From Planctomyces sp. (lineage in GTDB: Bacteria > Planctomycetota > Planctomycetia > Planctomycetales > Planctomycetaceae), in assembly GCA_005778115.1 (NCBI GenBank), contig SXKJ01000145.1:13916-77915 (forward strand): a stretch of 64,000 nt of DNA, read 5' to 3'. The notes beneath the pieces were generated by a model. The model ran no database searches. It worked only from the letters and a program-made list of their open reading frames with translations, and was not told the DNA's origin. Below, in pieces: positions 17,179-42,406 of this stretch (positions are counted from its first letter, which is position 1; every line of letters begins with the position of its first letter). A program made the position numbers and the translations under genes.

Positions 17179-17391
17179 GGCAGCACGTCTCCTGATTCAA
17201 AGCGGGAAAGTCACCCTCAGACGGAAATCGTAATGGCCGGATTCTGGTCTGTCGTGCCTTCTCGAAGCGGCGACGAATGAGCGGCCTTGTCGAGTCCATG
17301 AACTCGTGGACGTGCCAACGTCCGCCGAGTCGATAGAATCTCGCCGCGTTTCTCGTTCGAGGTCATCCCGGTTTCTCGGAACAATCTCCAC

Positions 17392-18582: not shown

Positions 18583-18654
18583 GTCGGTCCCTCTCGAAGA
18601 TGAATTTCCCACGAACACTTTCCCACCTCTCTGGCAACTGTTGAAAGCAAACTC

Positions 18655-22828: not shown

Positions 22829-24082
22829 ATGGGCTGCCTGGATTACCGAACGAATCGCCGAGCTGTGTTGCAGGCGTCACTGGCCTCGATCCTCGGATAC
22901 TCGATGCGCGACTTGATCGCCTTCGGCGGAACCGATCATGCGCCGACCGCCGAGCACGTCATTTTCTTCTGGAATGGCGGAGGAATGTCGCATATCGACA
23001 CATTTGATCCAAAACCAGGTCGGCCGACCGGCGGTGAGTTCGATCCCATCGACACCTCGGTCGAAGGGGTGAAGATTTCGCAAATCTTCCCAGAAGTGGC
23101 CAAGGTTATGCATCATTGTGCTCTTGTCCGCTCGATCGCCGGAACCAACGGAGATCACGGTCGTGGCACGTATCAATTGCAGACCAGCTATCAGGCTTCT
23201 GCCAACTTGATTCATCCGGGTTTCGGCTCAGTGGTGACTCACGAGAAAAAGCAACTCGGCGACTTGCCGGCCTACGTCACGATCAGTGGTCGTGCTCCTA
23301 AGGCCAGCTACCTCGGCCAGAAGTGCGAAGCGTACTTCATTGGCGCTCCCGGCGAGAAAGACCCGTACCTGTCGTTCCCGGAAGGAATCGCCTCGGCACG
23401 TGGCAATCAACGCTTGGAAGTGCTCGAAAAGTTCAACGGCCGCTTCGCCGAGAAGAGCAGCAACAAAGAGTTGAAGTCGACTCAGACCTCGATCGACGAA
23501 GCGCTGACACTGATGCGGAGCCCCGCCTTGGCCGCGTTCGAACTCGACAAAGTTCCGACGTCGCAGTTGAACCGTTACGGCGACACTCCGTTCGGCCGCG
23601 GCTGCCTCACGGCCAAGCAACTGGTTGAGACTGGTGTGCGGTTCGTCCAAGTGAACCGCGGCGGTTTCGATACGCACATGAACAACTTCCCCGCGATGGA
23701 GGCTCATGGCGAGATCATGGACCCGGCGATCGCGTCGCTGATCGCCGATCTCGCTGAATCGGGACTGCTCAAGAAGACCCTGATCGTCATGCTCAGCGAA
23801 TTCGGCCGCACACCGAAGATCAACAAAGACGCGGGCCGCGATCACTGGGCTAACGTCTTCACCTGCTTCATGGCCGGTGGCGGCATCAAGGGTGGCACGG
23901 TTATCGGCTCGTCCGACGAAGACGGCTACGAACCGAAGAACAACCCGGTGAAGGTTTCGAACCTGCACGCCACCTTCTGCCACGCGTTGGGAATCGACCC
24001 GGACAAGAAGGTCATGACGCCGCTTCAACGTCCATTCAAGCTGGTTGAAGACGGCACCCCGATCAAGGAACTGTTCGCATAA
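22829..24082 (+). CDS. DUF1501 domain-containing protein (sulfatase-like fold)
   Basis: Translation has HVIFFWNGGGMSHIDTFDPKP, SEFGRTPKINKDAGRDHWANVF and GGGIKGGTVIGSSD. Confidence 0.9.
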   Translation: MGCLDYRTNRRAVLQASLASILGYSMRDLIAFGGTDHAPTAEHVIFFWNGGGMSHIDTFDPKPGRPTGGEFDPIDTSVEGVKISQIFPEVAKVMHHCALVRSIAGTNGDHGRGTYQLQTSYQASANLIHPGFGSVVTHEKKQLGDLPAYVTISGRAPKASYLGQKCEAYFIGAPGEKDPYLSFPEGIASARGNQRLEVLEKFNGRFAEKSSNKELKSTQTSIDEALTLMRSPALAAFELDKVPTSQLNRYGDTPFGRGCLTAKQLVETGVRFVQVNRGGFDTHMNNFPAMEAHGEIMDPAIASLIADLAESGLLKKTLIVMLSEFGRTPKINKDAGRDHWANVFTCFMAGGGIKGGTVIGSSDEDGYEPKNNPVKVSNLHATFCHALGIDPDKKVMTPLQRPFKLVEDGTPIKELFA

Positions 24083-24402: not shown

Positions 24403-26820
24403 ATGCGAGCATCAAGCATTGCTTTGGGGGTCGTTTGTGGGGCGTTGTATTTGGGCAGCACCGCGTTAGCGCAGCCAGCCGCTAAGCCCAGCGAAACCCC
24501 TTCGCTAAAAGGCTCGATCGTCGAGGATCGAGCGGCCAAAAAGTTGGTCGAAGCGGGGGACGCTCGATACGAGGCGGATGAAGTCTCAAAGGCCGTTGAG
24601 GTTTGGCAGTCCGTGATCGAGCGGTATCCCAAAAGCAAGGTGCGGTACGAAGCCTACATGCGGCTGGGGAAATTCTTCCTACAGCGGGATCGGCAATACG
24701 ACAAAGCTCGCGCGCAGTTTGAGGCTGTCGCTGCGGAAGAAAACAAAGACGAAGAAATGCGGGCGGAGGCGACGCTCAAAGCAGGCATCTGCTTTTATGA
24801 GGCTCGCAACTTTGGCAAGTGCTTTCAGGTCATGCGAGAAGTCATCGAGAAGTTCCCGGTTAGCAAGCAGGTCAACGAAGCGTACTACTACATTGGACTC
24901 GGCCACTTCCAACTCGGCCATTACAGCCGAGCGATCTCGGCGCTGGAAAAAGTCGGCACGACGCTGGCCAGCGAAGAGGGCAAGGTCGAGAAACTGGAAG
25001 CCGGTAAGCGACTGTTTGTGAAAATCGAAGACGCGGACTTGTCGGCGCTCGAACCTGGTCAATCCATCAAGGTCGAGTGCATCGCGACCAGCGGCGACAA
25101 AGAGGTCGTCGAGTGCTTCTCAGTTGGCCGCAATGTGCGGATCGCACTGGGTAGCTTGCTGACGAAGCTCGGCAAGCCACAGTCCGGCAACGGGACGCTG
25201 GAATTGAAGGGAGACGACACTGTCGAAGTCTCGTACATCGACGAGCAAACGGCCGACAAGCAATTCAACCGCAAGCTTCTGCACAAGGTCACGGTCGTCG
25301 GCAACGGGCTCCTTTCGATCACCGACGGAGCCTTTAAGGAAACACTGCGCGGCGTGGTGCTCGGTAAGACGATCAATCTGCAAATCATCGATGCAGATCG
25401 CGACTTAACCGACGCCGCAGATACGATCAAAGCGTCCGTCGAGGTCGTTCGGCCGAAGACTGATGAGGAGATTGAGAACGAATTGCTCGAACTCAAGAAG
25501 TCCGGCAAGGCGGTCGCAACCGACGATGATGGGGAGCCGAAGATCGAGAAGTTCAAGAAGGTGGATCGCGTCGAAGTCACGATGACAGAGGTCAAAGTCG
25601 AGAATCAGTTCGAGAAGAAGCCGGCTGCTGATGACGCAACTGAGGCACCCAAAACAACGGCAGCGATCACGACCGGTCAACCCAACACAACGGACGGCGC
25701 TCCGCCCACGAAAGGCGAAACGAAACCGGCCGACTCGACGGCCCAACCCGCAGCGAAGCCAGTCGAGGACAATTCAATCCACTCCGGCGTCTTTCGAGTG
25801 ACGGTTGCGTTGGTTAAGGCTGAGGAGGTCGTTTCGACGGACGATGTCCTGCAAGCGTTGCCGGGAGACTTCGTCAGGCTGACCTATGCCGACGCGAAGA
25901 ACACAACGCCGGAAGCTCGCACCGTTACGTTCGACGCGAAGGCGATTGAAGGAAACCTTGGCGGCGTGCGAGTCACCAAGGCTTTGATCTCCGACCGCGA
26001 ATTGCGAGTGCAGACGCAGCTCAAGACGGCTCACGCGCTGACCAACATCGGGAATCGTTACAAGGAATTCGGTCTGAAGAAGAACGCCGACGCCAAGTAT
26101 GAGCAGGCGCTCGACCTGTGCGACGAAATCATGACAGAGGCCACAAAGCTGGGCGGCAAGTTGCTCGAAGAGACTTACGTGCAGCTTTGGAAGATCTACT
26201 ACGAGATGGACAAGCTGGAACTCGCCGCCGCGATGGCTGAGCGGTTGCAGCGGCAGTTTCCCGACAGCGGTTTTGTGGATGACGCACTGTTGCAACTCGC
26301 GGACGTCGCACTCAAGCAAAACAATTTCAACCGCGCGATCGGGGTCTATCAGCGTCTGGTCAACATGCCGACGAGCCAACTCCGCGGCGAGGCTCAATTC
26401 GGCATCGCTCAGTGCTACGACAAGATGGCGGAGCAGCAGCCCAACGAAGCGGCGAAGGCGCAGCTCTTCGACCGGTCGTTCCAGGAATACAAAAAGGTCT
26501 TCGACAACTTCCCCGAAAGCGGTCGAGTCGGCGAAGCAGTCGCTCAGATGGCCAACTACTACTACCGCCAGAAGGATTACGCTCGCGCCGTGGATATCTT
26601 TGAGACCGTGCTGGAGAACCATCCGGACGCGAAGTTCTTGGACGTGATCCTGTTCAATTACGGCCGCTGCCTGTATCGCATGGACCGCAAGGCGGAAGCT
26701 CGCAAACGATTCGATCAACTCATCGGCGACTACCCCGAAAGCCCGCTCGCCGGTGATGCGAAGAAGATCTCGGAAGCGTTGAACAAGGCGGAACGCACGG
26801 CGGCACCGAAGGGAAACTGA
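24403..26820 (+). CDS. Secreted TPR-repeat protein (805 aa) with central beta-module region and a Thr/Pro/Ala-rich linker
   Basis: Internal ATG at 24403 gives the signal peptide MRASSIALGVVCGALYLGSTALAQP. YbgF-like TPRs occur at both ends (e.g. YPKSKVRYEAYMRLGKFF, YPESPLAGDAKK). The central region carries D-x-D-x-D...GVF modules. Confidence 0.8.
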   Translation: MRASSIALGVVCGALYLGSTALAQPAAKPSETPSLKGSIVEDRAAKKLVEAGDARYEADEVSKAVEVWQSVIERYPKSKVRYEAYMRLGKFFLQRDRQYDKARAQFEAVAAEENKDEEMRAEATLKAGICFYEARNFGKCFQVMREVIEKFPVSKQVNEAYYYIGLGHFQLGHYSRAISALEKVGTTLASEEGKVEKLEAGKRLFVKIEDADLSALEPGQSIKVECIATSGDKEVVECFSVGRNVRIALGSLLTKLGKPQSGNGTLELKGDDTVEVSYIDEQTADKQFNRKLLHKVTVVGNGLLSITDGAFKETLRGVVLGKTINLQIIDADRDLTDAADTIKASVEVVRPKTDEEIENELLELKKSGKAVATDDDGEPKIEKFKKVDRVEVTMTEVKVENQFEKKPAADDATEAPKTTAAITTGQPNTTDGAPPTKGETKPADSTAQPAAKPVEDNSIHSGVFRVTVALVKAEEVVSTDDVLQALPGDFVRLTYADAKNTTPEARTVTFDAKAIEGNLGGVRVTKALISDRELRVQTQLKTAHALTNIGNRYKEFGLKKNADAKYEQALDLCDEIMTEATKLGGKLLEETYVQLWKIYYEMDKLELAAAMAERLQRQFPDSGFVDDALLQLADVALKQNNFNRAIGVYQRLVNMPTSQLRGEAQFGIAQCYDKMAEQQPNEAAKAQLFDRSFQEYKKVFDNFPESGRVGEAVAQMANYYYRQKDYARAVDIFETVLENHPDAKFLDVILFNYGRCLYRMDRKAEARKRFDQLIGDYPESPLAGDAKKISEALNKAERTAAPKGN

Positions 26821-26821
26821 C

Positions 26822-27055
26822 ATGAAGGCGGTGGACGAACTGACGAACGTGAGCGAAGCAGAACGCAGTGAGTGGATCGCGGAGTTTGACGCGATGGCTC
26901 GTCGGCCATTGCCGATTCGGGTGCGATACGGATTCATTCACACCGTCAAGCCGGTGCTAGATGATGCACCGTCGCGCGTATTCGACACAATGCAGCAATA
27001 CCGGGACTGGTGCGAGCAACAACTTCCGGCATGGTTGGGTTATGGCCGCGTTTGA
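26822..27055 (+). CDS. Small hypothetical protein (77 aa), first gene of a small-ORF/nucleotidyltransferase cassette
   Basis: The ATG lies 1 nt after the TPR gene stop (TGAcATG). There is a 14-nt overlap with the next ORF. I recognised no family. Confidence 0.4.
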   Translation: MKAVDELTNVSEAERSEWIAEFDAMARRPLPIRVRYGFIHTVKPVLDDAPSRVFDTMQQYRDWCEQQLPAWLGYGRV

Positions 27056-27521
27056 ATATCGACAAGCGGAGGAAATTCGAGAGACATTCGCGCGGTGGAA
27101 CGTGCGGTATTTGTTCTTGGGAAAGTCCGCCGCAATCTTAATGGGGTTTCCCGACACAACTCAGGACGTAGATCTTTATCCGCAACGATCCGCCGACAAC
27201 GGTGACAAGTAGGTTCAGGCTTTGATGGAACTGGGGTTTCAACTGACGGATCGGGACAAGGATGGCATTCGGGCGGGAAAGGATTTCGTGCAACTGAAGA
27301 ATGGGCCGTTTGACGTGGACTTGATCTTCGCGCCGGACGGCATTGAGCAATTCGAGGACGCTTGGAAGCGTCACCTGGAGATTGAAGGATTTCCGCTCTG
27401 CCATCTGGACGACATCATCGCCAGCAAGCGAGCGGCAAATCGGCGAAAGGACATTGAATCGCTGCCAAGGCTGGTCGCGTTTCGAGACTACTGGAAGCAG
27501 AAGCAAGCGTTGCTCGATTGA
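27042..27521 (+). pseudogene. Minimal nucleotidyltransferase-fold protein interrupted by one in-frame TAG (27210..27212)
   Basis: ORFs 26961..27212 and 27222..27521 are in the same frame and are separated only by the TAG. The joined product has FLGKSAAILMGFPDTTQDVDLYP (a G-S...D-x-D NTase motif) and resembles the intact paralogue at 35931..36359. Confidence 0.6.
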
Positions 27522-27567
27522 GCCGCGCCGGGAATTCACGAAGAACTTGAAGACAGGACTGATTCCG

Positions 27568-30500
27568 ATGCAACGAATTGCTTTGTTCGGTCTGTTGCTC
27601 GCCTTGGGCGGCCTTCCCACATCGACAACATTCGCTCAGCAGGCGAATGCGCCGGCTCAGGCAACAGCGGAAGATTCCAAGCAGCTTGATGCCGTTTCGC
27701 AAGAAGCGGCGAAGCTGGAGGCGGACCTGAATAAGTTCAAGGACACGTCGCCGGAGGCTGCGGAGTTGTTGGTCAAGTTGACCGACCTCTATCACCTGCA
27801 TGGGCGAGTGTTCGGCCTGATCCGCGCGGGGCAGCGGTTTTCGGCGGCCCATCCTGGCGATCCGCGAAATCAGGCGGTGATGTTGAAGCTGATCGACGGG
27901 CTGGAGGCGATGTCTCGGCACAAAGAGCTCACGGTTTCGATTCGGCAGTTCATTCAGAAGTACCCGACAGCTCCGCAGAACTTGGAATTGGAAGAGCGAT
28001 TGGCGAAGGCGCTCGACAAGTTGGGTGATCGTGCAAAGGCGGCGGAAACGTATAGAGCGATGTGGCAGCGACAGCCGAATGTGAACGGACGGAAGTTTGG
28101 TGAGGCAGCAGTCGCGCGATTCAATAACGGCACACAGAACGAAATCTTTGAAGGCAACGTGCTCGCCGAGGACATGCTCGACAAGTTGCCGGCCGGTGAG
28201 TTCACGAAGTTGCTGGCGGCGAACGCTCATTACCGTTGGCGACAGTACGGACAGTGGGCGAAGGCCAATACGCTCGGAGCCAAGATGTTGGCCAAGGGGC
28301 TGCCGTACACGCCGGAGGAAACTCGCGAGTTGCAGCGAATGCAGGGTGATCAGTTCAACTATCTCGGCCAATACGCGAACGCGGCGAATCATTATCGACA
28401 GGTGCGGGCTATCCGCGACGACTGGTCGGCGCTGAATCAACTCATCTACTCGATGTACTACTCACAAGCGAAGGGGGCCGAGTTCGAACCGCTTGTGAAT
28501 GAGTTCGACGCGAAGTACCCGGATCGCGAGGAGCGGTTCGAGAAGCGAGCTCTGTTGGCGACGGCGTTGATTCGGGACGGCGACAAAGCTCGCGGGCTGG
28601 AGATGATCAAGCCGATTCTGGCGATCAACCCGTATCACCACAGTATCGCGTCCCTGTTCGTTCAGAACGCCGGAACCGAACCGGCTCAGTTTCAGACGGC
28701 TGAGGCGGTGCTCAAGGACGCTCTGGCCAAGAATCCGAAGTACAACGCCTACTATTTGCGACATTCGCTGGCATTGGAAATCTATCGCGACCGTATGAAG
28801 GACGACGCCAAGTGCAAGGCGATGTGCCGCGAGTTCCTCGATCAAGTCCCCGGCAACGATGGGCATTCGTGGAACATTCTTTCGCACCTGCTGTTCCAGG
28901 CGACGAACGACGCCGAGTTTCAGCAGGACGTGCAGCGTTATCTGGCCGCTCGGCGGAAGAACTTGCACATGGCCACCTTCGCCTCCTACTTGCAGTCCTA
29001 CATTGACCAGGCGAAGCCGAACAAGGAACTGAAGGACCGCGTCGCTTATGCGGTGGCGGAACTCAAGAAGCAAAATGACGATCCAGTCGTCGCGTTGTGG
29101 CTGAAGTGGACTCACAACATTTATTCCGGTCCAGACGCTCAGATTCGGGCAAACTTGCGAGCGAACCACCTCGCCACGTTGCCGGAGCCAATGTGGGAAC
29201 AGCTCATGGCCGAGGATGCGTACTACTTCCGGCATGTGCCTCCGCAAGCAAAGCAGCGTGAGGATTCCGCTCGGACATACCTGCTACTCGCGCAGCGGTT
29301 CCCCAAGAATCGCAGCTACATCGACGAAGCGTTGAGCTCGGTCAGCGATTACGGGCCGATCGACATCAGCAAGCAGATCTTCGACTTATTCGTCGCTCAG
29401 GAACCGTTGCTGAACAACTCGGATCAGTGGCGGCGGTTGTTCATGATTGCCGATCAGCACAAGGACCAATCTCTGGCGAAGCGGACGCTGGAATACATCC
29501 AGAAGTCGCACGCAAAATTCGGCAAGGACAGCGGCTATGCATCGGGCATTGGTGACGCACTAACGCGGCATCAATTACTTGCCGAAGCGACGGCCTACTG
29601 GCAGTTCGGCCGCATGCACGACCGGCAGTCGTACGAGTCCTCCGAATGTGCGGCGCGTCTTTTTGCCCCGCTGAAGACCCCCGATGAACGGATTGCGTTC
29701 GCCAACGAGATGCTGCAAACCAATACGAACTCCAACACGCGATTCGCGCAGTGGGCGGCGAACGCCTACATGGAGAAGGGCGACCTCGCCAGCGTCGAGC
29801 GAGTCACTCGTGATGCGCTGACCAAGCAGCAAGAGAAGTGCTTCCTGGCCGCCAATTGGGACGCGACGCAGTGGTACAACATGGTCTACGGCGTGCGCAC
29901 TCAGCCGGACAAGATGAAGGAGTTGCCGCCCGCCTCGAAGCAGCAGATTTACGCTCTGGTCCGCGACATCAATTTCGATTGGGGTTCGTCGCAGGCTCAG
30001 ATTTATCACCTGGAAGGGCTGACGCCAGCCGAACTCGCTCAAGTGCCGCCGACCAAGCGGCTGCTGATCATCGCCGACGCGACTCGCAAGCTTTACGCGG
30101 ACTCGTATCGCTGGGACCAGATGATGGCCGTCGCGCAGCAAAAGGTGGCGGCCAAGGACTACATCAGCGGGGCGACTCTGCTGACTGGATTGCTGACGAA
30201 CATTCCGCAGGTCGATGAGCCGCGCAAGGCTGTGGCCCGTAACCTCGTCAGTCAGTGTTACACGCGGATTGGCGCAGTCGGCCTGACCATCGACGAGAAG
30301 TCGCCCATCGCGCCACTGTTGCAGGCGGCGATGTATTTGCGGCTGGGTGACGAGCGGCTCGCCATCGAGTCTTACACGGCCAACAAGAAACTGTTCGATG
30401 ACCACCGTGACGAAGTCCCGGTCGATCTCGTGATGTTCGTCTGCCAGAACCTGATGGCGGCGGGGGGCAATGACAACTTGGAGAAGGTCGAAGATACGTT

Positions 30501-33500: not shown

Positions 33501-35583
33501 TCTCGACGCGCAGAACACGTTCCCCGGCCACTCGGTCAAGCGGGAATCGGTCGTGTACATCAACAAGCCGACCACCGCGCAGATTCGGATCGTCGAAACG
33601 CGAGTCCTCCCCGGCAACCCAAAACAGAACACCGCCCCGCAGGCTGTGTATCTCAAGGAAGCGGACGCAAAAGATCGCAAGGAAGTCGCACATGTCGCGT
33701 TCGAGGCTCCGTTGACGATCGAGGTCATCGACCCGGACATGGCCAAGGACAGCAAATCGGAAGTACTCGTCACGCTGACAACGACGGATGGAGCCAAGAT
33801 CGAAGCCCGCTGCGTCGTGAGCGGCCAGCACGCTCACTTCGGCAATTTTCAAGCGGTTGATGCGGAACGCTGGGCTCTCGAAGAGGGCCGTTTCCTCGGT
33901 CAGGTAATTTTGCAACTCGGCAGCAAAGGAAGTGCGGATGTGATTCCGCTCACTTCCGAGATGCCTCGTAACCTGATCGGAGGAGGCAAGCTGGAAGATT
34001 CGCAAACCAACTCTGGCAAGGACCGTAGTTTGGTCACTCGAGTTTTGAACCTCACAGGCAAAGACAAGATCATCGCAACCTATGCTGACGAACGGCGTCC
34101 CGACGCGAAGCCGCGAACGAAAGCCGCCGTGGCTGTGCCAAACGGCGCTGGCACGTCCCCCGCAACAAACGGTGCGACCAAGACGGCTGCTGTGACTCCC
34201 ACAACAAAGCCGGCGATGACAAAAACGGACACCACGAAGTCCACGACCGGAGCAGCGAAGACGGGAACTGGGACCGCGAAGACAACGGCTCCCGCTCAAC
34301 CTGTCGCGCCACCGAAGCCGGAGATTCCGACCGTCACGGCGCAAGCTCGGCTGATCAGCAATGGTGTGCTGGGTGTCGTCGATCGCGACTACGACAATGC
34401 GATCTCTCAACTCCATGTCGGTGAGAAGTTGTACCTGCAAGTCACCGACGCCGATCAAGACTCGTCCGACGAACGCGATCGCGTCGCGGTCGAAATCACC
34501 ACCGAGTTCGGCGAGAAAGAAACGGTCCAATTGGAAGAGACGCTGGCTCACAGCGGCGTCTTCACCGGCTCGCTGCAACTGAAGGCGAACGATAAGCCGA
34601 CGCCCGGCAACTTGAACGCCGATGTGCCGGTCATTGAGTGCTACTTCGGCGACACGCTGAAAGTGAAATACGTCGATCTCGCCGCTAGCACCGAAGATGG
34701 CAAGCTCGAATCGGAGAAGACCATCCCAGTCGTGATCGGCACCGATGGACTCGTGGCTGCGTTCTCAAAGGCGTTCAACGACGAACGGCTCGCGGTCGAA
34801 ACCAAGTTCCACATCGCCGAGAGCTTCTTCGAGTTGTTCAAGTCGCATAAAGCACTCGCCCGCAAGGACGAGGAGTTGGCGGACCTGGAAGCCGGTCGCC
34901 GCATCCTGCAAGAAGTGATGGAAGACTATCCCGATCCGAGGTACGTCCCCCGCATCCAATATCTGCTCGGCCAGTTCGCACAGGAGTTGGGTCAGTGGGA
35001 CGACGCGGTCGATGCCTACGAGCAGATCATCAACCACTACGCCGACCACTTGCTGGCCCCGGATGCGCAGTACAAGCTGGCTCAGTGCTATGAAGAGAAG
35101 GGAGACTTCGACGCGGCGTTGGAGGCTTATGTCACACTCGCCGCGACGTACCCGAAGAGCCCGCTGATCTCCAGCGTGATGATCCGCATCAGCGATCACT
35201 TCTACAAAGCCGAGGAGTATACGATCGCAGCACAAGTCGGTGAGAAGTTCATCGAGAAGTTTGAAGGCCACCAACACGCTCCGAAGATGGCGTTCCGCAT
35301 CGGCCAGTGCTTCTACAAAGCGAAGAAGTACACCGACGCGGGCAAGTCGTTCGACCGCTTCGGCAAGGCATTCCCAGACGACGCTCTCTCCCCGGACGCC
35401 TTGTTCTGGTCCGGCGAGAGCTACCGTATGGGTGGAGCAACCTCCGAAGCCTTCCGTCGCTATAACAACTGCCGCTGGAATCATCCTTCGAGCGAAGCCG
35501 CCAAATTCGCTCGCGGCCGACTCGCGCTGCCAGAGATGTTGCAGCAGTTCGAATCGGAGGCGAACGCGATCGAGAACCAGTAA
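27568..35583 (+). CDS. Giant secreted protein (2671 aa): N-terminal helical/TPR-like region, repeated beta modules, discoidin/PA14/CBM-like domains, Thr/Ala/Pro-rich linker, C-terminal TPR block
   Basis: Internal ATG at 27568 gives the signal peptide MQRIALFGLLLALGGLPTSTTFAQQ. A single uninterrupted frame runs to 35583. The C-terminus has YbgF-like TPRs (YPDPRYVPRIQYLLGQF, YPKSPLISSVMIRISDHFY). The central-region motifs are listed in the findings. Confidence 0.85.
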   Translation: MQRIALFGLLLALGGLPTSTTFAQQANAPAQATAEDSKQLDAVSQEAAKLEADLNKFKDTSPEAAELLVKLTDLYHLHGRVFGLIRAGQRFSAAHPGDPRNQAVMLKLIDGLEAMSRHKELTVSIRQFIQKYPTAPQNLELEERLAKALDKLGDRAKAAETYRAMWQRQPNVNGRKFGEAAVARFNNGTQNEIFEGNVLAEDMLDKLPAGEFTKLLAANAHYRWRQYGQWAKANTLGAKMLAKGLPYTPEETRELQRMQGDQFNYLGQYANAANHYRQVRAIRDDWSALNQLIYSMYYSQAKGAEFEPLVNEFDAKYPDREERFEKRALLATALIRDGDKARGLEMIKPILAINPYHHSIASLFVQNAGTEPAQFQTAEAVLKDALAKNPKYNAYYLRHSLALEIYRDRMKDDAKCKAMCREFLDQVPGNDGHSWNILSHLLFQATNDAEFQQDVQRYLAARRKNLHMATFASYLQSYIDQAKPNKELKDRVAYAVAELKKQNDDPVVALWLKWTHNIYSGPDAQIRANLRANHLATLPEPMWEQLMAEDAYYFRHVPPQAKQREDSARTYLLLAQRFPKNRSYIDEALSSVSDYGPIDISKQIFDLFVAQEPLLNNSDQWRRLFMIADQHKDQSLAKRTLEYIQKSHAKFGKDSGYASGIGDALTRHQLLAEATAYWQFGRMHDRQSYESSECAARLFAPLKTPDERIAFANEMLQTNTNSNTRFAQWAANAYMEKGDLASVERVTRDALTKQQEKCFLAANWDATQWYNMVYGVRTQPDKMKELPPASKQQIYALVRDINFDWGSSQAQIYHLEGLTPAELAQVPPTKRLLIIADATRKLYADSYRWDQMMAVAQQKVAAKDYISGATLLTGLLTNIPQVDEPRKAVARNLVSQCYTRIGAVGLTIDEKSPIAPLLQAAMYLRLGDERLAIESYTANKKLFDDHRDEVPVDLVMFVCQNLMAAGGNDNLEKVEDTLRSWLIKNEMSTTYDAATKAGVQLLLAKNFFTAQRYDVARSEYTTVINRFPNTPYSTEAEFGIGETFMAQKVYDQAEAVFEKLATSREADVVVRAEFLRGVLAHRRGDQDEARLIFRNVLDRVPNIELANQALFNLAEVYGSEERFMDQLNLLRTVGRLGRSSKRFHSPGQALSIVVQDSDLGISRGHNKIPVIVRTIPGGDEEIVYLTSGGAGKGLFRTDLETALGSVKKRDKVLQLTGKDQIKCDYPDEFKKEFKSVPLSDVEIKIASNARFEIASQKIVDEKEETFSQKLAREEQEQDNERNRRTQVRPKNQVKPGNQVFLKVTDQDRDLTDEPDTVMVKLTADSGDQVQVAVKETGPHTGVFEGIAQTGELPAGALASDTSIDHSPLMAIDKKKESYWLSEPDGAVPKFLTIDMKDLNPVDRVKIWSPKPDTQIPIRGELLGSNDGEFWFRLASHPEPLKADKLFDEYAAMRRRVYAGIFTNYTTWDQVKQLAKSNKPSEEEDVVNGLTWSRAEDAEDSKKPYGVIWYGKLVQPRAGAARLQIQGVTTALAIDGVLEMPLGPGNRTVDVWLEKGLHDVTIFAAVNQATQISQAIWARADINRQQVQLGPFLKSDFDLALAEAREVVQTAKPVATEIVLGIDTIKLTKKTEAFGVIKERNPAQIGSWVALEDSAVWEFDGAQQGVYDVYLECAHGGGGGSTFDLECAGTKLKGTVPNTGNWTVAQLTRFGTIIIDKPGKQTLSIKPTAIAGGGLMELRSAKLVPAIDARIVQTPGAWEFRFPSNDLRYTRFKINEYLGDAVAVNHVEIGGRGIAHSKVEAGKAADDTERLYIPTDSDVLELSNNNTLEIAGGDMVSAGYTDEFTQNENSNSVLLSEKLFATYFNATVGAINYDFVRLDNGQVQNITKTVVRADPGERFVVEINDYDLDTTIGQDTLEFEVSVNDGEPVKLSAVERELNLSGTFTKEIDTVLAGSSAAEADNTEGKLKVKPGDRIVIRYLDAQNTFPGHSVKRESVVYINKPTTAQIRIVETRVLPGNPKQNTAPQAVYLKEADAKDRKEVAHVAFEAPLTIEVIDPDMAKDSKSEVLVTLTTTDGAKIEARCVVSGQHAHFGNFQAVDAERWALEEGRFLGQVILQLGSKGSADVIPLTSEMPRNLIGGGKLEDSQTNSGKDRSLVTRVLNLTGKDKIIATYADERRPDAKPRTKAAVAVPNGAGTSPATNGATKTAAVTPTTKPAMTKTDTTKSTTGAAKTGTGTAKTTAPAQPVAPPKPEIPTVTAQARLISNGVLGVVDRDYDNAISQLHVGEKLYLQVTDADQDSSDERDRVAVEITTEFGEKETVQLEETLAHSGVFTGSLQLKANDKPTPGNLNADVPVIECYFGDTLKVKYVDLAASTEDGKLESEKTIPVVIGTDGLVAAFSKAFNDERLAVETKFHIAESFFELFKSHKALARKDEELADLEAGRRILQEVMEDYPDPRYVPRIQYLLGQFAQELGQWDDAVDAYEQIINHYADHLLAPDAQYKLAQCYEEKGDFDAALEAYVTLAATYPKSPLISSVMIRISDHFYKAEEYTIAAQVGEKFIEKFEGHQHAPKMAFRIGQCFYKAKKYTDAGKSFDRFGKAFPDDALSPDALFWSGESYRMGGATSEAFRRYNNCRWNHPSSEAAKFARGRLALPEMLQQFESEANAIENQ

Positions 35584-35632
35584 CGATTCAGTGCTGTCAG
35601 TCGCCACACCAGAACAACGCGAGGACATTGCC

Positions 35633-35977
35633 ATGTCAGCCGTCAAGGAAACCGCTGGAGAACTCCTTGAGCCTCTTTCGGATGAATCGTCTCAGAAAGA
35701 AGCTCAGTATCGACTGTATGTGCGACAGACTATCGAGCAGGGGCTAGCTGACGTGGAAGCAGGAAGAGTTATCTCTCACGGCGAAGCCAAGCGTCAAATC
35801 GTTCCCGTTTTTGTCGAACGCGATCTCAGTGATCCGAATGACGATGCTTCCTACTGGCGTTCGCGTCCTGCGGAAGAACGAATCGCTGCGTTGGAAGAGA
35901 TCCGCGCGGAATACCACCATTTGTTAGGCGATGCTGAATCAAGACTTCAAAGAGTTTTTACAGTCGTTGAACACTAA
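35633..35977 (+). CDS. Small antitoxin-like protein (114 aa), partner of the downstream nucleotidyltransferase-fold gene
   Basis: Internal ATG at 35633. QTIEQGLADVEAGRVISHGEAKRQI resembles addiction-module antitoxin tails. The C-terminus is RPAEERIAALEEIRAEY...RLQRVFTVVEH. It overlaps the next gene by 47 nt. Confidence 0.5.
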   Translation: MSAVKETAGELLEPLSDESSQKEAQYRLYVRQTIEQGLADVEAGRVISHGEAKRQIVPVFVERDLSDPNDDASYWRSRPAEERIAALEEIRAEYHHLLGDAESRLQRVFTVVEH

Positions 35978-36359
35978 CGGCGTCAGGTACTTGGTGATTG
36001 GCGGTTACGCGGTGGCGTTTCACGGGCACCCGCGCTACACGAAGGATATTGACGTCTGGATTGATCGGTCGGAGGAAAATGCCGCACGCTTGGTGAAGGC
36101 CCTGGATGATTTTGGGTTCGGCTCGTTGAATCTGGCGGCCGAAAGATTTCTGAAACCTCACAAGGTTTTTCAATTGGGAATCCCTCCCCGACGGATCGAC
36201 ATTTTGACTTCTCCCATCGGAGTCGAGTTTGACGGTTGCCATTCACGCCGGGTTGAGCAGACTATCAACGGAGTACTCGTTCCGTTTATCGGCCTGGAAG
36301 ACCTGAAGATGGCCAAACAATCCGCCGGAAGACATCAAGACCTCGACAACTTGTCGTAA
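35931..36359 (+). CDS. Minimal nucleotidyltransferase-fold protein (142 aa)
   Basis: LVIGGYAVAFHGHPRYTKDIDVWI is a G-G...D-I-D motif. The C-terminus is GLEDLKMAKQSAGRHQDLDNL. Confidence 0.6.
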   Translation: MLNQDFKEFLQSLNTNGVRYLVIGGYAVAFHGHPRYTKDIDVWIDRSEENAARLVKALDDFGFGSLNLAAERFLKPHKVFQLGIPPRRIDILTSPIGVEFDGCHSRRVEQTINGVLVPFIGLEDLKMAKQSAGRHQDLDNLS

Positions 36360-36403
36360 TTGTTTTCACCCGCAAACTAATCCCGCCTTCGAATGATTGC
36401 ACG

Positions 36404-37387
36404 ATGACACATCTGATCCTTGCTCTCGCGTTGTTGACCCAAGACCCGCTGGACGCGCTCGATGCCAAGCAAGGTATCAAGAAAGCCGCGCCGCCGGCTG
36501 CAACGGCTCCAGCCCAGCCGACTCCACCGGATGCGAAGAGCGCGAAGCCCAGCATTCCGGGCTTTTCCGATACGGCGGGACAGCCGGCTCAGGAAGTCGC
36601 GCCGCCCAATGAAGCCAAATCGGACGAGAAGCCGGCCGAGGAGTCGGTCAGTGATTCCGGGATCGGTTTCTGGGACTGGGTCGACAAGATGATGCACACC
36701 GGTGCGATGGGCTTAATGATTCGCGGTGGGATTTTCATGTGGCCGATTCTGGCCTGCGGAATTCTCATGACGGGGGTCATCATCGAGCGGTATCGCACTT
36801 TGAAGATGCTGACGACGGACGCTAGCGGGCTTCGACAGCAAGTGACTGAATTACTTCACGACGACAATGTTGAGGACGCGCTCGCGAGGTGTGACTCCGA
36901 ACAAGGTCCGGTGGCAGCAATCCTCTCTGCCGGACTGCGGAAATTCGTTGTGCTCAGGCGGCTGGGTTACGACTCCGGCAAGGTTGAGGAGCAGGTCATC
37001 AAGGCGATGGACGATTATGGAGTCCACATCGTGGCGGCGCTCGAAAAGCACCTGTCGATTTTGGCGACCGTGTCGAGCGTGGCTCCGATGCTCGGCTTTT
37101 TGGGAACAGTCAGCGGCATGGTCAACGGCTTTGATCACATCGTGGCGACGCTCGGCGAGCAGAACATCGTGAAGGCAGCCGCCGACGGTATCGCGGAAGC
37201 GTTGCTGACGACCGCCCTCGGACTGATCGTCGGCATTCCCGCGTTCACGGCTTACAACTATTTCACAGGGGTCATCAACCAATTCGTGCTGGATGTCGAA
37301 GAGACCGCGACGGAGCTGATTGAGACCGTGACATTGCAGTTGGCGATCGAAAGACGTGAAACCGAAACAGAAGCGGCCAACGCCTGA
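36404..37387 (+). CDS. exbB: MotA/TolQ/ExbB proton-channel family protein with a ~100-aa Pro/Ala/Lys-rich N-terminal extension
   Basis: The C-terminal two thirds carry FMWPILACGILMTGVIIERY, LSILATVSSVAPMLGFLGTVSGMV and IAEALLTTALGLIVGIPAFTAYNYF, the ExbB TM2/TM3 signature. Confidence 0.85.
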   Translation: MTHLILALALLTQDPLDALDAKQGIKKAAPPAATAPAQPTPPDAKSAKPSIPGFSDTAGQPAQEVAPPNEAKSDEKPAEESVSDSGIGFWDWVDKMMHTGAMGLMIRGGIFMWPILACGILMTGVIIERYRTLKMLTTDASGLRQQVTELLHDDNVEDALARCDSEQGPVAAILSAGLRKFVVLRRLGYDSGKVEEQVIKAMDDYGVHIVAALEKHLSILATVSSVAPMLGFLGTVSGMVNGFDHIVATLGEQNIVKAAADGIAEALLTTALGLIVGIPAFTAYNYFTGVINQFVLDVEETATELIETVTLQLAIERRETETEAANA

Positions 37388-37396
37388 TCTCCACTA

Positions 37397-37468
37397 ACCG
37401 TACCGCGACCGCTGGGAAGGGGTTGGGGGCCGGTGTCCCAGCAGGCCGCTCCCTAACGGTCGCGGTAC
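37397..37468. repeat. Palindromic element (GTACCGCGACCG ... CGGTCGCGGTAC with an inner CTGGGA...TCCCAG pair)
   Basis: Read from the sequence between exbB and the first exbD. Confidence 0.65.
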
Positions 37469-37489
37469 AGTCCCGAGAATTGATCCGAA

Positions 37490-37921
37490 ATGAAAGTCCG
37501 TCGTTCCACCAAAGTGCTTGTCGATGTTCCGGCTGTGGCCAGCGGGGACATCGCGTTTAATTTGATCGTGTTCTTTCTGGTGTGTGCCTCGACCCAGCCG
37601 GACACCGGACGGTCGCAGATTCTTCCGAAGAGCGAACAGACTCAACAGCAGCAGGAACAACAGGACGAGCATCTGACTGTCGAACTCAAACGCAATGCGC
37701 TGCTCATCAATGGCGATCCGGTGAAAGTGTCTGAGATCAAAGCTCGTGTGAAGGCGAAATTGTCCGGAAAGTCGCGTCCGGAAGACCGCGTCGTGATCGT
37801 GAAGAGCGCCGATGACGTGCCGTATCACGCCTGGATCGACGTCACCTCGCAAATCGAGGATGCGGGTGGGATCATCACTTTGCAACTTGAGGAAGAACGA
37901 ACCGTCGATGTGCCGCAGTAA
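37490..37921 (+). CDS. exbD: ExbD/TolR family biopolymer transport protein
   Basis: A single N-terminal TM with the conserved Asp (VASGDIAFNLIVFFLV) and a periplasmic domain (LLINGDPV...VVIVKSADDVPYHAWIDV). Confidence 0.85.
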   Translation: MKVRRSTKVLVDVPAVASGDIAFNLIVFFLVCASTQPDTGRSQILPKSEQTQQQQEQQDEHLTVELKRNALLINGDPVKVSEIKARVKAKLSGKSRPEDRVVIVKSADDVPYHAWIDVTSQIEDAGGIITLQLEEERTVDVPQ

Positions 37922-37978
37922 CGTAGGTTGGGGCTCTGCCCCGACCGCTCGGCACAGAGAGCCAAGCTACAAAACACC

Positions 37979-38386
37979 ATGAAGATGAAACGCGGAAAAC
38001 CGAAGGTCGATATCCCCAGCGTGGCGATGGGGGATATCGCTTTCAATTTGCTGATCTTTTTCGTGATCCTGGCTCAGTCGCAGGATGACAGCCACATTCA
38101 GTGGACTCCGGCCAAGGCGGACAATCTGAAAGGGGCGGGTTACACGCGAGTCACCGTCACCATCGACAAAGATCAGAAGGTCTATCTCAACGGCCAGGAG
38201 CTTTCCGAAGGTCAGCTTGCCTCGCGAATCGAAAGCCATTTAGGTGACGCTCCAGCCGGCCAGCGAAAAGTCATGTTGAAGGCTCATAGCGATTGCACGG
38301 CGGCAAAGTTCGAGCCGGTGATCGAGGCCATCAGTCAGGCGGGTGGCGAGTTGGTGCATATTTTGGAAGACAAGAAGCAGAATTGA
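37979..38386 (+). CDS. exbD: ExbD/TolR family biopolymer transport protein (second paralogue)
   Basis: Internal ATG at 37979. Translation has VAMGDIAFNLLIFFVILA and VYLNGQEL...KVMLKAHSDCTAAKFEPVIEAI. Confidence 0.85.
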   Translation: MKMKRGKPKVDIPSVAMGDIAFNLLIFFVILAQSQDDSHIQWTPAKADNLKGAGYTRVTVTIDKDQKVYLNGQELSEGQLASRIESHLGDAPAGQRKVMLKAHSDCTAAKFEPVIEAISQAGGELVHILEDKKQN

Positions 38387-38388
38387 CC

Positions 38389-38447
38389 CGTCGCTTGACT
38401 CTCTTAGTCGAGTCTTCGGGCTGCTCGACTCAGAGAGTTGAGCGACG
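38389..38447. repeat. 24-bp-arm imperfect palindrome directly after the second exbD stop
   Basis: CGTCGCTTGACTCTCTTAGTCGAG (38389..38412) pairs with CTCGACTCAGAGAGTTGAGCGACG (38424..38447), with 2 mismatches. Confidence 0.8.
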
Positions 38448-38468
38448 ACAAACAAACCGAGGTGTGCC

Positions 38469-38948
38469 GTGGACAAACTGCGTGAAAAATTGACCGAGGA
38501 TATTCCGCCGAAGACCGGCATGATGAGTGGCGCAAAGCGACTCTCGACAGACGCGGCGGCGACGACATCCGAGTTGCGTGACTTCGTGCGCAGCTTGAAA
38601 GGCCGCAGTCCGCAGGAAGTGATGGGAATCGTCGCGTCGAATGCGCTGACTCAGGCGATGATCGGCTCGACGATTGCGACGGTCGTGTTGCTGGCGGTGC
38701 TGACCGTGCCATTCGCCTTTGGCAACTCGGCGAAAGCCAAGCCCACCAAGCCGGGGGCAGCTGCCGCCAATGTCGAACCGGCCAAGACCGACGCCGCATC
38801 CTCGAAGGCTGCAAATTCTGGCGACACTCCTTCGGAAGAGGACATCAAAAAGGCCAGCAAGGCGATGGGCTTGGACGAGACAAAAACGGCTGACCCGAAA
38901 AAGAATCCGCTCGACAGCTTCGACAACCTGCTGGACAAGGTGAAGTAG
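38469..38948 (+). CDS. Hypothetical single-TM protein with a Lys/Ala/Pro-rich tail (159 aa)
   Basis: GTG start. One TM segment, AMIGSTIATVVLLAVLTVPFAF, is followed by AKAKPTKPGAAAANVEPAKTDAASSKAA.... I saw no TonB C-terminal domain motif. Confidence 0.5.
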   Translation: MDKLREKLTEDIPPKTGMMSGAKRLSTDAAATTSELRDFVRSLKGRSPQEVMGIVASNALTQAMIGSTIATVVLLAVLTVPFAFGNSAKAKPTKPGAAAANVEPAKTDAASSKAANSGDTPSEEDIKKASKAMGLDETKTADPKKNPLDSFDNLLDKVK

Positions 38949-38955
38949 AAGTTTT

Positions 38956-39026
38956 GGCGAGCCGGGTGGCGTCAGCCCCCGGATGTCGTGGAGATGAGTC
39001 CGGGGGCTGACGCCACCCGGCTCGCC
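38956..39026. repeat. Perfect 28-bp inverted repeat with 15-nt spacer; sister of the copy inside the RND pump gene
   Basis: GGCGAGCCGGGTGGCGTCAGCCCCCGGA (38956..38983) pairs with TCCGGGGGCTGACGCCACCCGGCTCGCC (38999..39026). Confidence 0.9.
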
Positions 39027-39063
39027 TGATTCTCGCTCGATGCAACTCACAGGCTCTTAAGAA

Positions 39064-40662
39064 ATGTTTCCACATCTGACATTCCCCCCGAAGCTCGTCA
39101 AACAGACGGCCATTTATCTGGCGGTCTGGGTGTTGTGCTTGGCGGACTGGATGTGGGGACGCTCGATCGAAACCTGGTGGCGAGCGTGGCCGGAGGGAAT
39201 CTGGTTTGCGCTGGGCGTGCCACTGTCGACGTATTGGATTGCGTGGACGGGTTGGCTGTGCCGGTTGGAGGACGGAGACAACGCGAATCTCATCGCCTTG
39301 CGGCGAATCGCGGGAGACCTTGGCTCCGCGACTCTGGATGAACGCTCGGACGAAACGGCGTTACTAGTTCGTCGAAATTTGGTGTGGAGCGTCTCGGCGA
39401 TTTTACTCTGGCAGGTGAGCGTCTTCTTCGCGGATGCGCTCGACCTGCCGCACATGCGAGTTGGCTTGGCGACGTGGGGAACCTGGAGCCTGTTCTTTCT
39501 CGGCATGGTGTGGGTGGTGTGGTTGGTTGAACGGGCATCGCGGTTCTATGAAGAGCGGCGTTACGAACGTCGGCGACGCGAGCAATCAGCGGCCATCGAG
39601 TTCGCGCGGTCCGCTCACCGAGCGACGCACGACGATGATGCGGACGACGAGCGAGTCCACAATCCGCTCGATCCGCACGCTTGGTATTACGGACGACGGG
39701 CGCGGAAGCTGAATCAATCGCTGACTTGGATGTCGGTCTATTCGTTGTGCTTTTCGATCGCGTTTCTGGTTTTCACACAAATCGGCGGTTGCAGTGACAT
39801 CTACGAAATGCCGGCCGGCGGCGGACAGCAGGCTCAGATCGCTCAGGCCGTGAAGATCCAGAAGATCATCAAGAAGAAGTTCGTGGTGAATCCGTTTTCG
39901 GCGATTAGCTTCAAAGTGCCGCCGATCGACGAGATCAAGCTGCAGCTTCAAGAAATCACACAGCACGCCTACACGGTCGGCTACGGCGAAGGAACGGGAG
40001 CGGGCTTCGCGGGCGGGACAAGCTCAGGCAAAGTTCGATTCCTGCGGCTGGAGTATTCCGGCGGCGACTGGGATCAGGACATGAGTGTGTACTCCGGCGA
40101 CAACTTGCTCCGCGAGTACGGTCTGCGCACGAAGCAGAAAGTGAACGACAAGGAAGAGACGCGGACCATCTCCGCGCTCAAGGCATTTCCGGCCGAGAAG
40201 TCTCCGCCGTTCGTGTACATGACCGGCGAGAAAAACATTTCGATCTCAGCCAACGAAGCGAAGACGTTGCGAGATTATCTGGTCGACAAGCACGGAATGT
40301 TGTTCATCGACAACGGTGGCAGCGGGCACTTTCACAACCAGGTTTTGTCGATAATGCGGCAAGTCCTCCCCAACGTTCGTCCGTCCCATGTGCCGCTCGA
40401 TGACACGATCCATCGCATCCCCTATCCGATTCCGTTCCTGCCGTATGTCGCCCCGCACGGCGGCAAAGAGGCGCTCGGCTGGCGAGTCGATGGCCGCTTG
40501 GTCGCGTATTACCACCCCGGCGACATCGGCGACGCCTGGGCCGACGGCCACGCCGGTGTAAAGCCGGAGATCACAGAGTTCTGCTATCAACTCGGCGTCA
40601 ACGTGGTCTTCTACGCTCACGCTGAGTACTCGAAGTGGCTGTTGTCGCGGATGAAAAAGTAA
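39064..40662 (+). CDS. Polytopic membrane protein with C-terminal DUF4159-like domain
   Basis: The N-terminus has about 5 TM segments. The C-terminus has LRLEYSGGDWDQD, PPFVYMTGEKNISISANEAKTLRDYLVDKHGMLFIDNGG, YYHPGDIGDAW and GVNVVFYA, which fits my recollection of the DUF4159 pattern. Confidence 0.7.
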   Translation: MFPHLTFPPKLVKQTAIYLAVWVLCLADWMWGRSIETWWRAWPEGIWFALGVPLSTYWIAWTGWLCRLEDGDNANLIALRRIAGDLGSATLDERSDETALLVRRNLVWSVSAILLWQVSVFFADALDLPHMRVGLATWGTWSLFFLGMVWVVWLVERASRFYEERRYERRRREQSAAIEFARSAHRATHDDDADDERVHNPLDPHAWYYGRRARKLNQSLTWMSVYSLCFSIAFLVFTQIGGCSDIYEMPAGGGQQAQIAQAVKIQKIIKKKFVVNPFSAISFKVPPIDEIKLQLQEITQHAYTVGYGEGTGAGFAGGTSSGKVRFLRLEYSGGDWDQDMSVYSGDNLLREYGLRTKQKVNDKEETRTISALKAFPAEKSPPFVYMTGEKNISISANEAKTLRDYLVDKHGMLFIDNGGSGHFHNQVLSIMRQVLPNVRPSHVPLDDTIHRIPYPIPFLPYVAPHGGKEALGWRVDGRLVAYYHPGDIGDAWADGHAGVKPEITEFCYQLGVNVVFYAHAEYSKWLLSRMKK

Positions 40663-40841
40663 ACCTTCACCTGGCAGATTGCGGCGTCCCTTCGGTGTGG
40701 CGCGACGTATTAGATCAGCGGCCATTATCGCAAGACCCATCGGGCTTCTCGCATGTTTTCACCCCCGCGACGTTACACTGCTCGCCACTTCGCCCGCGCT
40801 GTGCGAGCCTCTTTCCGTGGTCTGGGATTCGGAGGTTAATC

Positions 40842-42404: not shown

Positions 42405-42406
42405 GC

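Follow-up and report, generated by a model that had tools for sequence, protein, structure and literature searches.

We analysed a window of 64,000 nucleotides from a contig of Planctomyces sp. (all positions given below refer to this window), which carries a cluster of genes for an ExbB/TolQ-type motor protein, two ExbD/TolR-type proteins, two giant secreted proteins with tetratricopeptide repeats (TPR) and a polytopic membrane protein ending in a DUF4159 domain. An earlier reading of the letters, made without database searches (hereafter the sequence-only reading), had placed six co-directional genes on the + strand, and the open reading frame (ORF) listing, its translation and the Pfam matches agree with it at the same coordinates. 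It had overlooked a DUF1549/DUF1553 and DUF1501 gene pair, with which the conserved block begins at 20492, upstream of the gene at 24403 that it took to be the first; it had also overlooked two inserts and a third TPR gene that is found in relatives. As now delimited, the block comprises nine genes in the order PSD746, DUF1501, TPR805, TPR2671, ExbB, ExbD1, ExbD2, p159 and the DUF4159 protein (Table 1).

Table 1. Genes and other features of the motor locus, in order along the window
Feature	Positions	Strand	Description
PSD746	20492..22732	+	First gene of the block; Pfam PSD1 (DUF1553) 3e-47, PSCyt2 (DUF1549) 1e-34
DUF1501 protein	22829..24082	+	Pfam DUF1501 2.5e-104; twin-arginine translocation (Tat)-like N-terminus TNRRAVLQ
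TPR805	24403..26820	+	805 aa; Pfam, TPR families only
Upstream insert	26822..27521	+	77-aa ORF 26822-27055, then DUF6036-like nucleotidyltransferase 27043-27521, stop-interrupted
TPR2671	27568..35583	+	2671 aa; Pfam, TPR families only
Downstream insert	35633..36359	+	114-aa ORF 35633-35977, overlapping a 142-aa DUF6036-type nucleotidyltransferase 35931-36359
ExbB/TolQ-like stator subunit	36404..37387	+	Pfam MotA_ExbB E=6e-27, residues 167-299
Hairpin	37397..37471		Intergenic; 26-nt arms, 81% complementary
ExbD1	37490..37921	+	Pfam ExbD E=2e-16; transmembrane Asp in GDIAFNL
ExbD2	37979..38386	+	Pfam ExbD E=2.5e-15; transmembrane Asp in GDIAFNL
Hairpin	38389..38447		Intergenic; 24-nt arms, 88% complementary
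p159	38469..38948	+	159 aa; single-pass; no Pfam or NCBIfam match
Hairpin	38956..39026		Intergenic; perfect, 28-nt arms; same repeat family as 8285-8354
Polytopic DUF4159 protein	39064..40662	+	Pfam DUF4159 (PF13709) E=1.7e-33, residues 325-518

Proteins of the motor locus

As judged from profile matches and conserved residues, the cluster encodes a complete TolQ/TolR-type stator, made up of one TolQ-like ExbB and two heterologous ExbD/TolR proteins with intact proton-path residues. ExbB has three transmembrane (TM) segments by hydropathy analysis and retains the Thr of GTVSG and the Glu and Thr of IAEALLTTA, which align with the TolQ/ExbB motifs. Its best NCBIfam match is TolQ (TIGR02796; 113.9 bits, under the cutoff of 221), and its best match in the PDB is E. 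coli TolQ (8odt, E=4e-16). The translations bear out the sequence-only reading in that both ExbD proteins keep the GDIAFNL motif. The two are about 30% identical (cross-matches 27-34%) and each has its own set of orthologues, which implies that they would form an ExbD1/ExbD2 heterodimer inside the pentamer, as the TolR-like pair does in AglQ/AglS. Under the TolR model (TIGR02801) they score 30.1 and 21.1 bits against a cutoff of 127.3; on such scores ExbB and the ExbDs are only family-level relatives of the TolQ and TolR equivalogs. The Pro/Ala/Lys-rich N-terminal extension of ExbB, once considered a possible stand-in for TonB or TolA, is in-frame in several relatives. It is, however, variable and in some relatives absent (in L084, for instance, where ExbB has 232 aa), and therefore makes a poor TonB substitute.

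The other stand-in proposed by the sequence-only reading, p159, remains plausible. By hydropathy it has one TM helix (about residues 60-85), which presents a conserved face in alignments of relatives. The same alignments show a conserved N-terminal motif, ELRxFxxxLKGRSPQEVLG, and a spacer of variable length and sequence that is rich in Ala, Pro, Lys and Thr. The protein closes with a conserved motif of about 35 residues, AMGIxETKxADPKxNPLExxLDxLLDxxK, of which the end, LDxLLDxxK, is amphipathic. The family has 376 cluster representatives, and among the 150 listed nearly all are about 110-240 aa long (one has 296 aa) and aligned over most of their length. On the evidence of these alignments, p159 belongs to a previously unannotated family of small stand-alone proteins.

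The polytopic protein scores 116.3 bits against the DUF4159 family cutoff of 25.9. It has about four N-terminal TM helices, which vary among relatives, and a loop (residues 160-215) that contains 14 Lys or Arg residues and is therefore placed in the cytoplasm. The helix TM5 (220-242) bears an invariant polar face (N217, Q218, S219, Y226, S227 and F230). The juxtamembrane segment 244-321 is nearly invariant and yet has a predicted local distance difference test (pLDDT) score of about 30 when modelled alone with AlphaFold2 (AF2), which suggests folding on binding. In the AF2 model of the protein (26 sequences; overall pLDDT 66.8), residues 323-532 form an alpha/beta domain that is placed in the periplasm. 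Foldseek matched this domain best to 4i66 (target TM-score 0.79), a structural-genomics entry for an uncharacterised Haliangium protein, and then to class-I glutamine-amidotransferase domains; a search of its profile against solved structures gave no sequence match. Many Ser, His, Asp and Glu residues of the domain are invariant, including those in DNGGS, at a strand-to-helix turn, and in PYVAPHGG. Judged by sequence and model, its anatomy is the better one for a transducer. The sequence-only reading had treated the protein as an accessory; it proves to be the most conserved partner, and stays with ExbD1, ExbD2 and p159 even where ExbB lies elsewhere.

The DUF4159 domain may also be seen as the catalytic part of a periplasmic enzyme under motor control, in which case a hydrolase or amidotransferase-like activity (for example on cell-wall peptides) would be gated by the stator and organised on the TPR scaffolds. 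The amidotransferase folds retrieved by Foldseek and the many invariant residues of the domain are in keeping with this, and in Tol-Pal systems CpoB-like TPR domains coordinate wall synthesis. On the other hand, the sole close structural match, 4i66, is uncharacterised, and the domain has no sequence match to any solved enzyme; we regard a motor-regulated enzyme as quite unlikely.

The two giant proteins have the layout that the sequence-only reading described. Both N-termini are hydrophobic and signal-like by hydropathy. In TPR805 the signal peptide is followed by an N-terminal TPR region, beta modules, a T/A/P-rich linker, another beta module and a CpoB/YbgF-like C-terminal TPR; TPR2671 has a signal peptide, a TPR/helical region of about 1100 aa, a beta-sandwich array of about 1080 aa, a T/A/P linker, more beta modules and, again, a C-terminal TPR like that of CpoB/YbgF. 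Under the YbgF TPR-domain model (TIGR02795), TPR805 scores 108.7 and TPR2671 135.3 bits against a cutoff of 90.1, each of them by way of several stretches of TPR. Against the CpoB model for the full length, which has a cutoff of 383, they reach 35 and 65.9 bits, and the CpoB coiled-coil domain was found in neither protein with Pfam or NCBIfam. TPR805 is 53-69% identical across four relatives (L020, L027, L083 and L084) that span families and phylum labels.

The centre of TPR2671 (residues 1110-2190) was modelled by AF2 from 24 sequences as an all-beta structure (pLDDT 80.1, predicted TM-score 0.70). Foldseek matched it to Ig-like S-layer arrays (8c8m, 6e-14), to arrays of MG domains such as those in bacterial alpha-2-macroglobulin and complement C3, and to jelly rolls that bind carbohydrate, CBM32 among them; TPR2671 lacks the thioester motif of alpha-2-macroglobulins, and its centre has no sequence match among solved structures. 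When TPR2671 was cut into 300-aa slices, Pfam gave a single weak match, to F5_F8_type_C (discoidin; E=0.0013), and homologues of the protein carry the same family (PF00754).

At the head of the block, PSD746 is secreted or anchored, as judged from its signal or anchor segment, and contains a CxxCH motif (CAQCHDH). Its orthologues are 81-82% identical in close relatives and 46-57% in distant ones, and lie upstream of DUF1501 and TPR805 in L020, L027 and L084 also. Orthologues of the DUF1501 protein are 93-95% identical in close relatives, 62-74% in distant ones and 60% in L084, far above the 28-30% or so of its paralogues; this indicates that the block includes one particular PSD/DUF1501 pair. 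Neither PSD746 nor the DUF1501 protein has a sequence match among solved structures. The window holds a further DUF1501 gene at 54416-55807.

This pair and the lectin-like modules of TPR2671 make uptake or processing of a substrate a serious rival for the function of the locus. The motor would then energise, in a Ton-like manner, the import of macromolecules (sulfated polysaccharides, for instance) or their processing, either across the outer membrane or in an enlarged periplasm; TPR2671 would capture the substrate, and the DUF1549/DUF1553 protein, with its haem motif, and the DUF1501 protein, of the phosphatase/sulfatase superfamily, would process it. Conservation of the pair at the cluster head, the discoidin/CBM32-like and other carbohydrate-binding-like folds, and the abundance of sulfatase, PSD and DUF1501 genes in the window and in related loci all agree with such a role, and ExbB-ExbD-ExbD-TonB-TPR operons serve uptake in other phyla. 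It is harder to reconcile with the very high sequence conservation, unlike that of substrate-specific uptake loci, with scores that bring ExbB and the TPR ends nearer to TolQ and YbgF than to ExbB, and with scans in which neither the cluster nor the other ORFs covered in the window showed a TonB-dependent transporter or any other channel of the outer membrane. We consider an uptake energiser unlikely.

Conservation of the cluster in relatives

The DUF4159 protein has hundreds of full-length relatives with 50-93% identity. A profile scan anchored on it, with one genome per species, gave 360 loci, of which the best 80 were kept, nearly all of them labelled Planctomycetota; counts were made only on loci with enough flanking sequence. 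We found p159 between ExbD2 and the DUF4159 gene in 64 of 68 loci, an ExbD2 orthologue in 62 of 64, ExbD1 in 57 of 60 and ExbB in 47 of 54, with TPR2671 upstream of ExbB in 38 of 48. In one lineage ExbB is not adjacent, while ExbD1, ExbD2, p159 and DUF4159 are still together; here the TPR genes follow just downstream, with a DUF1549/DUF1553 gene and a DUF1501 gene ahead of them. Because of that arrangement a second scan, of metagenome contigs, was anchored on TPR805. It showed TPR2671 directly downstream in every case (58/58) and ExbB next in 24 of 25, with DUF1501 directly upstream in 47 of 55 and a PSD gene upstream of DUF1501 in 38 of 42. The gene neighbourhood, which the sequence-only reading had proposed to check, is thus strongly conserved, and recurrence of the order in scores of independent contigs argues that the arrangement is not due to chance. 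As far as gene order can tell, p159 and the DUF4159 protein, both in the inner membrane, are co-inherited with the ExbD pair, and the two giant TPR/beta-sandwich proteins and the DUF1549/DUF1553-DUF1501 pair are co-inherited with the motor.

In a metagenome-assembled genome (MAG) labelled Akkermansiaceae (L084) the set of nine genes is complete and ordered as in the window, with a further TPR gene after DUF4159, and homologues of the TPR2671 centre are labelled also Verrucomicrobiales, Opitutae, Haloferula and Gemmataceae. By these sequence comparisons, the cluster is conserved across Planctomycetota and seemingly into Verrucomicrobiota, although the taxon labels of MAGs are to be treated with care. 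MAG contigs about 90% identical to the window (L003, L006, L065 and others), for example, carry the name 'Candidatus Kuenenia stuttgartiensis' or else 'Planctomyces sp. SH-PL62', and these labels look unreliable. The window itself most likely belongs to a relative of the Planctomycetaceae that is uncultured and lives in freshwater.

The gene after DUF4159 codes for a third secreted TPR protein of about 540 aa (TPR540) in 38 of 62 planctomycete loci (at 11443-13071 in L017, for example), and likewise in the Akkermansiaceae-labelled L084 (20983-22461) and the Gemmataceae-labelled L083 (3103-4698, - strand). The window lacks TPR540, and its slot is occupied by the gene for a Tat-signal protein without family match (40842-42404). 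In L083 (4468-6904, - strand), a 206-aa DUF4159 gene and TPR540 are divergent from TPR805-TPR2671, and three small neighbouring ORFs gave no ExbD match; this is possibly a reduced or rearranged variant of the cluster.

Another planctomycete contig, L080, has a second ExbB-ExbD-ExbD cluster (14729-19740, - strand), which is followed by genes for two proteins, one of 375 aa that matches no family and one of 548 aa with a squalene-hopene-cyclase-like domain. A genome may, to judge from this, hold several motor clusters with different non-TonB partners. In the transposon-sequencing supplement for Planctopirus limnophila (PMC10632474), one essential member is given for each of three paralogue groups, namely five ExbB paralogues, an ExbD group of three and a hypothetical pair flanking ExbD pairs. 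Since the locus tags could not be mapped to the present cluster, this essentiality is a lead only.

Several ExbB-ExbD-ExbD clusters per planctomycete genome (the second one in L080, the five ExbB paralogues of P. limnophila), together with a view that covers 64 kb of the genome, leave some room for an ordinary stator of the Ton or Tol type, with its TonB or TolA gene at another place in the genome and with TPR, p159 and DUF4159 as neighbours by chance or through shared regulation. That explanation is extremely unlikely in our view, as the genes keep their order from one family and phylum label to another, with proteins of 30-60% identity, and p159 and DUF4159 remain beside the ExbD pair also in loci where ExbB lies apart.

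Comparison with known systems and a proposed mechanism

Profile searches with Pfam and NCBIfam support the sequence-only reading that the genes form a stator cluster of the MotA/TolQ/ExbB type in which TonB and TolA are missing. No TonB or TolA C-terminal domain is present in the products, and TonB_C, TolA, Plug, TonB_dep_Rec, OmpA and PD40 were found neither in them nor in the other scanned ORFs of the window (most of those with at least 200 aa). A canonical TonB, TolA, Pal, TolB or TonB-dependent transporter was rejected on the same scans. As the defining components were tested and not found, we place the cluster outside the Ton, Tol-Pal, Agl-Glt and Bat systems.

Among these systems, Tol-Pal shares with the cluster an inner-membrane stator driven by the proton-motive force (PMF), of which the ExbB scores best as TolQ; TPR C-termini that pass the YbgF/CpoB TPR model; and a single-pass protein with a Lys/Ala-rich periplasmic spacer. 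The cluster differs in having no TolA C-terminal domain, TolB or Pal, in TolQ and TolR scores under the NCBIfam cutoffs, and in two different TolR-like subunits where Tol-Pal has one. Its TPR proteins are of 805 and 2671 aa, with beta-sandwich arrays and no coiled coil, whereas CpoB/YbgF has about 260 aa, and it adds DUF4159, DUF1549/DUF1553 and DUF1501 components. The Ton system, in the form of ExbB-ExbD-ExbD-TonB-TPR operons or Vibrio TonB2 with TtpD, likewise has ExbB and ExbD paralogues beside a TPR gene, a membrane-anchored partner with a flexible periplasmic spacer, a MotA_ExbB domain with conserved Thr and Glu in TM2 and TM3, and the ExbD TM aspartate; TonB_C, an SHLS/His helix, a TonB-dependent transporter (in the window as scanned) and TtpB/TtpC are what the cluster lacks. 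Bat loci (MoxR-DUF58-BatA/B (vWA)-BatC/E (TPR)) resemble it in combining membrane-anchored alpha/beta-domain proteins with TPR proteins, and DUF4159 is often found in BatA-type proteins. They have no ExbB/ExbD motor, however, and 20492-40662 contains no MoxR, DUF58 or vWA; the BatC model scores 29.5 against 175.

The stator composition equals that of Myxococcus AglR/AglQ/AglS, with one TolQ-like and two TolR-like proteins, and large periplasmic TPR components, which the Glt complex includes, are a further likeness. The locus could on these grounds be an Agl-Glt-type motor for surface motility or adhesion, which would move or anchor a holdfast, fibres or crateriform structures through the periplasmic TPR proteins; gliding has been the subject of speculation for related vWA clusters (PMC12204202). 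Yet the GltE model scores 21.7 bits against an NCBIfam cutoff of 225, and neither Glt-like outer-membrane barrels nor the TonB-like GltG/GltJ components are recognised here. The carriers are not known to glide, and we rate this explanation as very unlikely.

The nearest prior description is that of Williams-Jones et al. 2025 (PMC12204202), who reported TPR-tolQ-tolR-tolR-vWA clusters in PVC bacteria (superphylum Planctomycetes-Verrucomicrobia-Chlamydiae) and proposed the vWA proteins as new force transducers. The sequence-only reading could name no characterised system of this composition; none matches indeed, but these clusters are related. They occur in the same taxa and combine a gene for a TPR protein, one tolQ-like gene and two heterologous tolR-like genes in one cluster. 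The transducers described there cross the membrane once, by an SHLS/His helix, and have a spacer of about 100 residues and a C-terminal vWA domain, whereas the candidate transducer here is polytopic, has no TM His and ends in DUF4159. Conserved along with it are p159, both giant TPR proteins and the PSD/DUF1501 pair. The DUF4159 domain was considered as the published vWA fold and rejected: it has no VWA match in Pfam, and Foldseek returned no vWA structure but 4i66 and glutamine-amidotransferase folds. No description of the present, DUF4159-containing cluster was found in full-text literature searches, and the cluster is a distinct variant of a 5:2 motor with non-TonB partners.

We favour the reading that this envelope locus of the PVC superphylum, with nine genes here and ten in most relatives, is built around a PMF-driven 5:2-type stator and works as a Tol-Pal-like machine, and give it about an even chance of being right. 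ExbB5-ExbD1/ExbD2 would turn proton flow into movement. The DUF4159 protein may dock on the stator through its conserved TM5 face, and its segment 244-321 may fold against the periplasmic domains of the ExbDs in the manner of the 'motor box' with which TonB and TolA bind the ExbD/TolR dimer, a beta-strand lying just behind their TM helix (PMC12204202); once docked, the protein would couple the motor to its own periplasmic alpha/beta domain. A second, TonB-like tether would be provided by p159, with its TM helix, flexible spacer and short C-terminal peptide. This peptide is of the kind bound by TPR domains, and so would connect the motor with TPR805 and TPR2671 (and with TPR540 in relatives) at their CpoB-like TPR ends. 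The giant proteins, composed of a helical solenoid and roughly ten beta-sandwich or lectin-like modules, would act as long periplasmic scaffolds reaching to the wall or the outer membrane. The sequence-only reading had made them the output of the motor; their linkage to it is tight and wide, and the output role itself is one that we infer.

The role of such a machine is most likely energised envelope maintenance, by analogy with Tol-Pal, in lineages that are reported to be without Pal, and a dedicated nutrient importer is less likely. This preference rests on several lines of evidence: the motor and the TPR ends are more like TolQ and CpoB than like ExbB, the sequences are very highly conserved (TPR805 to a degree that fits a core machine), no outer-membrane transporter is linked to the cluster, and no Pal is reported for Planctomycetes (PMC12204202 supplement). 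In addition, the authors of that study independently propose non-TonB transducers beside TPR-tolQ-tolR-tolR genes in PVC bacteria.

These considerations need to be weighed against several others that point away from a Tol-Pal-like machine. Docking on the stator, the 'motor box' and the contact of p159 with the TPR proteins are all inferred from single-chain models and sequence. In the alignments, no TM helix of p159 or of the DUF4159 protein has a His, so that the SHLS/His motif of TonB/TolA is missing. The linker of the DUF4159 protein is short, and it may therefore not reach far across the periplasm; with its glutamine-amidotransferase-like fold and invariant His, Asp and Ser, its domain could be an enzyme rather than a handle. 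The PSD and DUF1501 families are greatly expanded in these phyla and could serve substrate processing or uptake. Two Verrucomicrobiales loci have a giant TPR gene with no adjacent ExbBD, which indicates that the genes for the TPR proteins need not lie with those of the motor. Finally, promoter and terminator scans did no better than shuffled sequence and give no information on co-transcription.

A bolder version, which we hold only tentatively, is that the locus encodes a third, lineage-specific PMF machine besides Ton and Tol, in which the stator drives DUF4159 and p159 on the TPR scaffolds and the PSD/DUF1501 pair, and which replaces Tol-Pal where Pal is lacking. It would give a first functional handle on the enigmatic and hugely expanded PSD/DUF1501 families. 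If, as in the Tol-Pal-like machine favoured above, the DUF4159 protein or p159 is a force transducer, the known partners of 5:2 motors would widen beyond TonB and TolA, alongside the proposed vWA proteins. In either case the cluster ties families without known function (DUF4159, p159, DUF1549/DUF1553/DUF1501) to a motor of understood mechanism. Planctomycetes are not known to possess FtsZ. Pal is reported as lacking in them (PMC12204202 supplement), and how energy of the inner membrane is passed on to their wall and outer membrane is a question on which the cluster bears. As it is conserved over Planctomycetia and seemingly Verrucomicrobiota and its sequence is highly constrained, it provides a concrete candidate for such coupling, one that is open to genetics, and is a good candidate, as yet uncharacterised, for a motor-driven machine of a third kind that spans the envelope.

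Inserts, palindromes and neighbouring genes

The sequence-only reading gave the intergenic gaps as 45-116 nt, which holds for the section from ExbB to DUF4159 only; the gap between TPR805 and TPR2671 is of 747 nt and that between TPR2671 and ExbB of 820 nt. Each of these long gaps contains a small ORF and a DUF6036-type nucleotidyltransferase gene, and the two inserts are paralogous, their nucleotidyltransferases being 29% identical. The downstream enzyme matches Pfam DUF6036 (8e-6), and the ORF listing shows no intact ORF of at least 100 aa within the upstream insert. The downstream insert was found with both genes in only three relatives (L012, L015 and L052), and some close relatives retain part of the small ORF. 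So restricted a distribution of the complete insert indicates that these are insertions and stand outside the machine; the two-gene inserts may be a toxin-antitoxin-like mobile module.

Palindromes do occupy the short gaps as had been noted, with long hairpins filling three of those between ExbB and DUF4159 (Table 1). Elements of this kind, similar to repetitive extragenic palindromes, occur throughout the window (e.g. 8285-8354 and 38956-39026), and one family of palindromes sits in-frame within coding genes (42876-42937 and about 46390-46470). The palindrome encodes FVVPPLGGSPTDRLQAELRT in a PSCyt/PSD protein (42401-44887) and FVVPPSGGSGSQRRPPEGGTTN in a Ser/Thr kinase (45886-47259); at the site of FVVPPLGGSPTDRLQAELRT, orthologues of the PSCyt protein have different inserts.

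Downstream of the cluster (40635-44887), the Tat-signal protein that occupies the TPR540 slot, p520, is followed by the same PSCyt/PSD protein, which has PSCyt1, PSCyt2 and PSD1 domains. The two genes are kept together only in close relatives (at least 81% identity). Upstream of the cluster, on the - strand at 3229-10162, lies a complete resistance-nodulation-division efflux set, consisting of an outer-membrane factor, an HlyD-type adaptor and an AcrB-type pump, which appears to be unrelated to the motor cluster.

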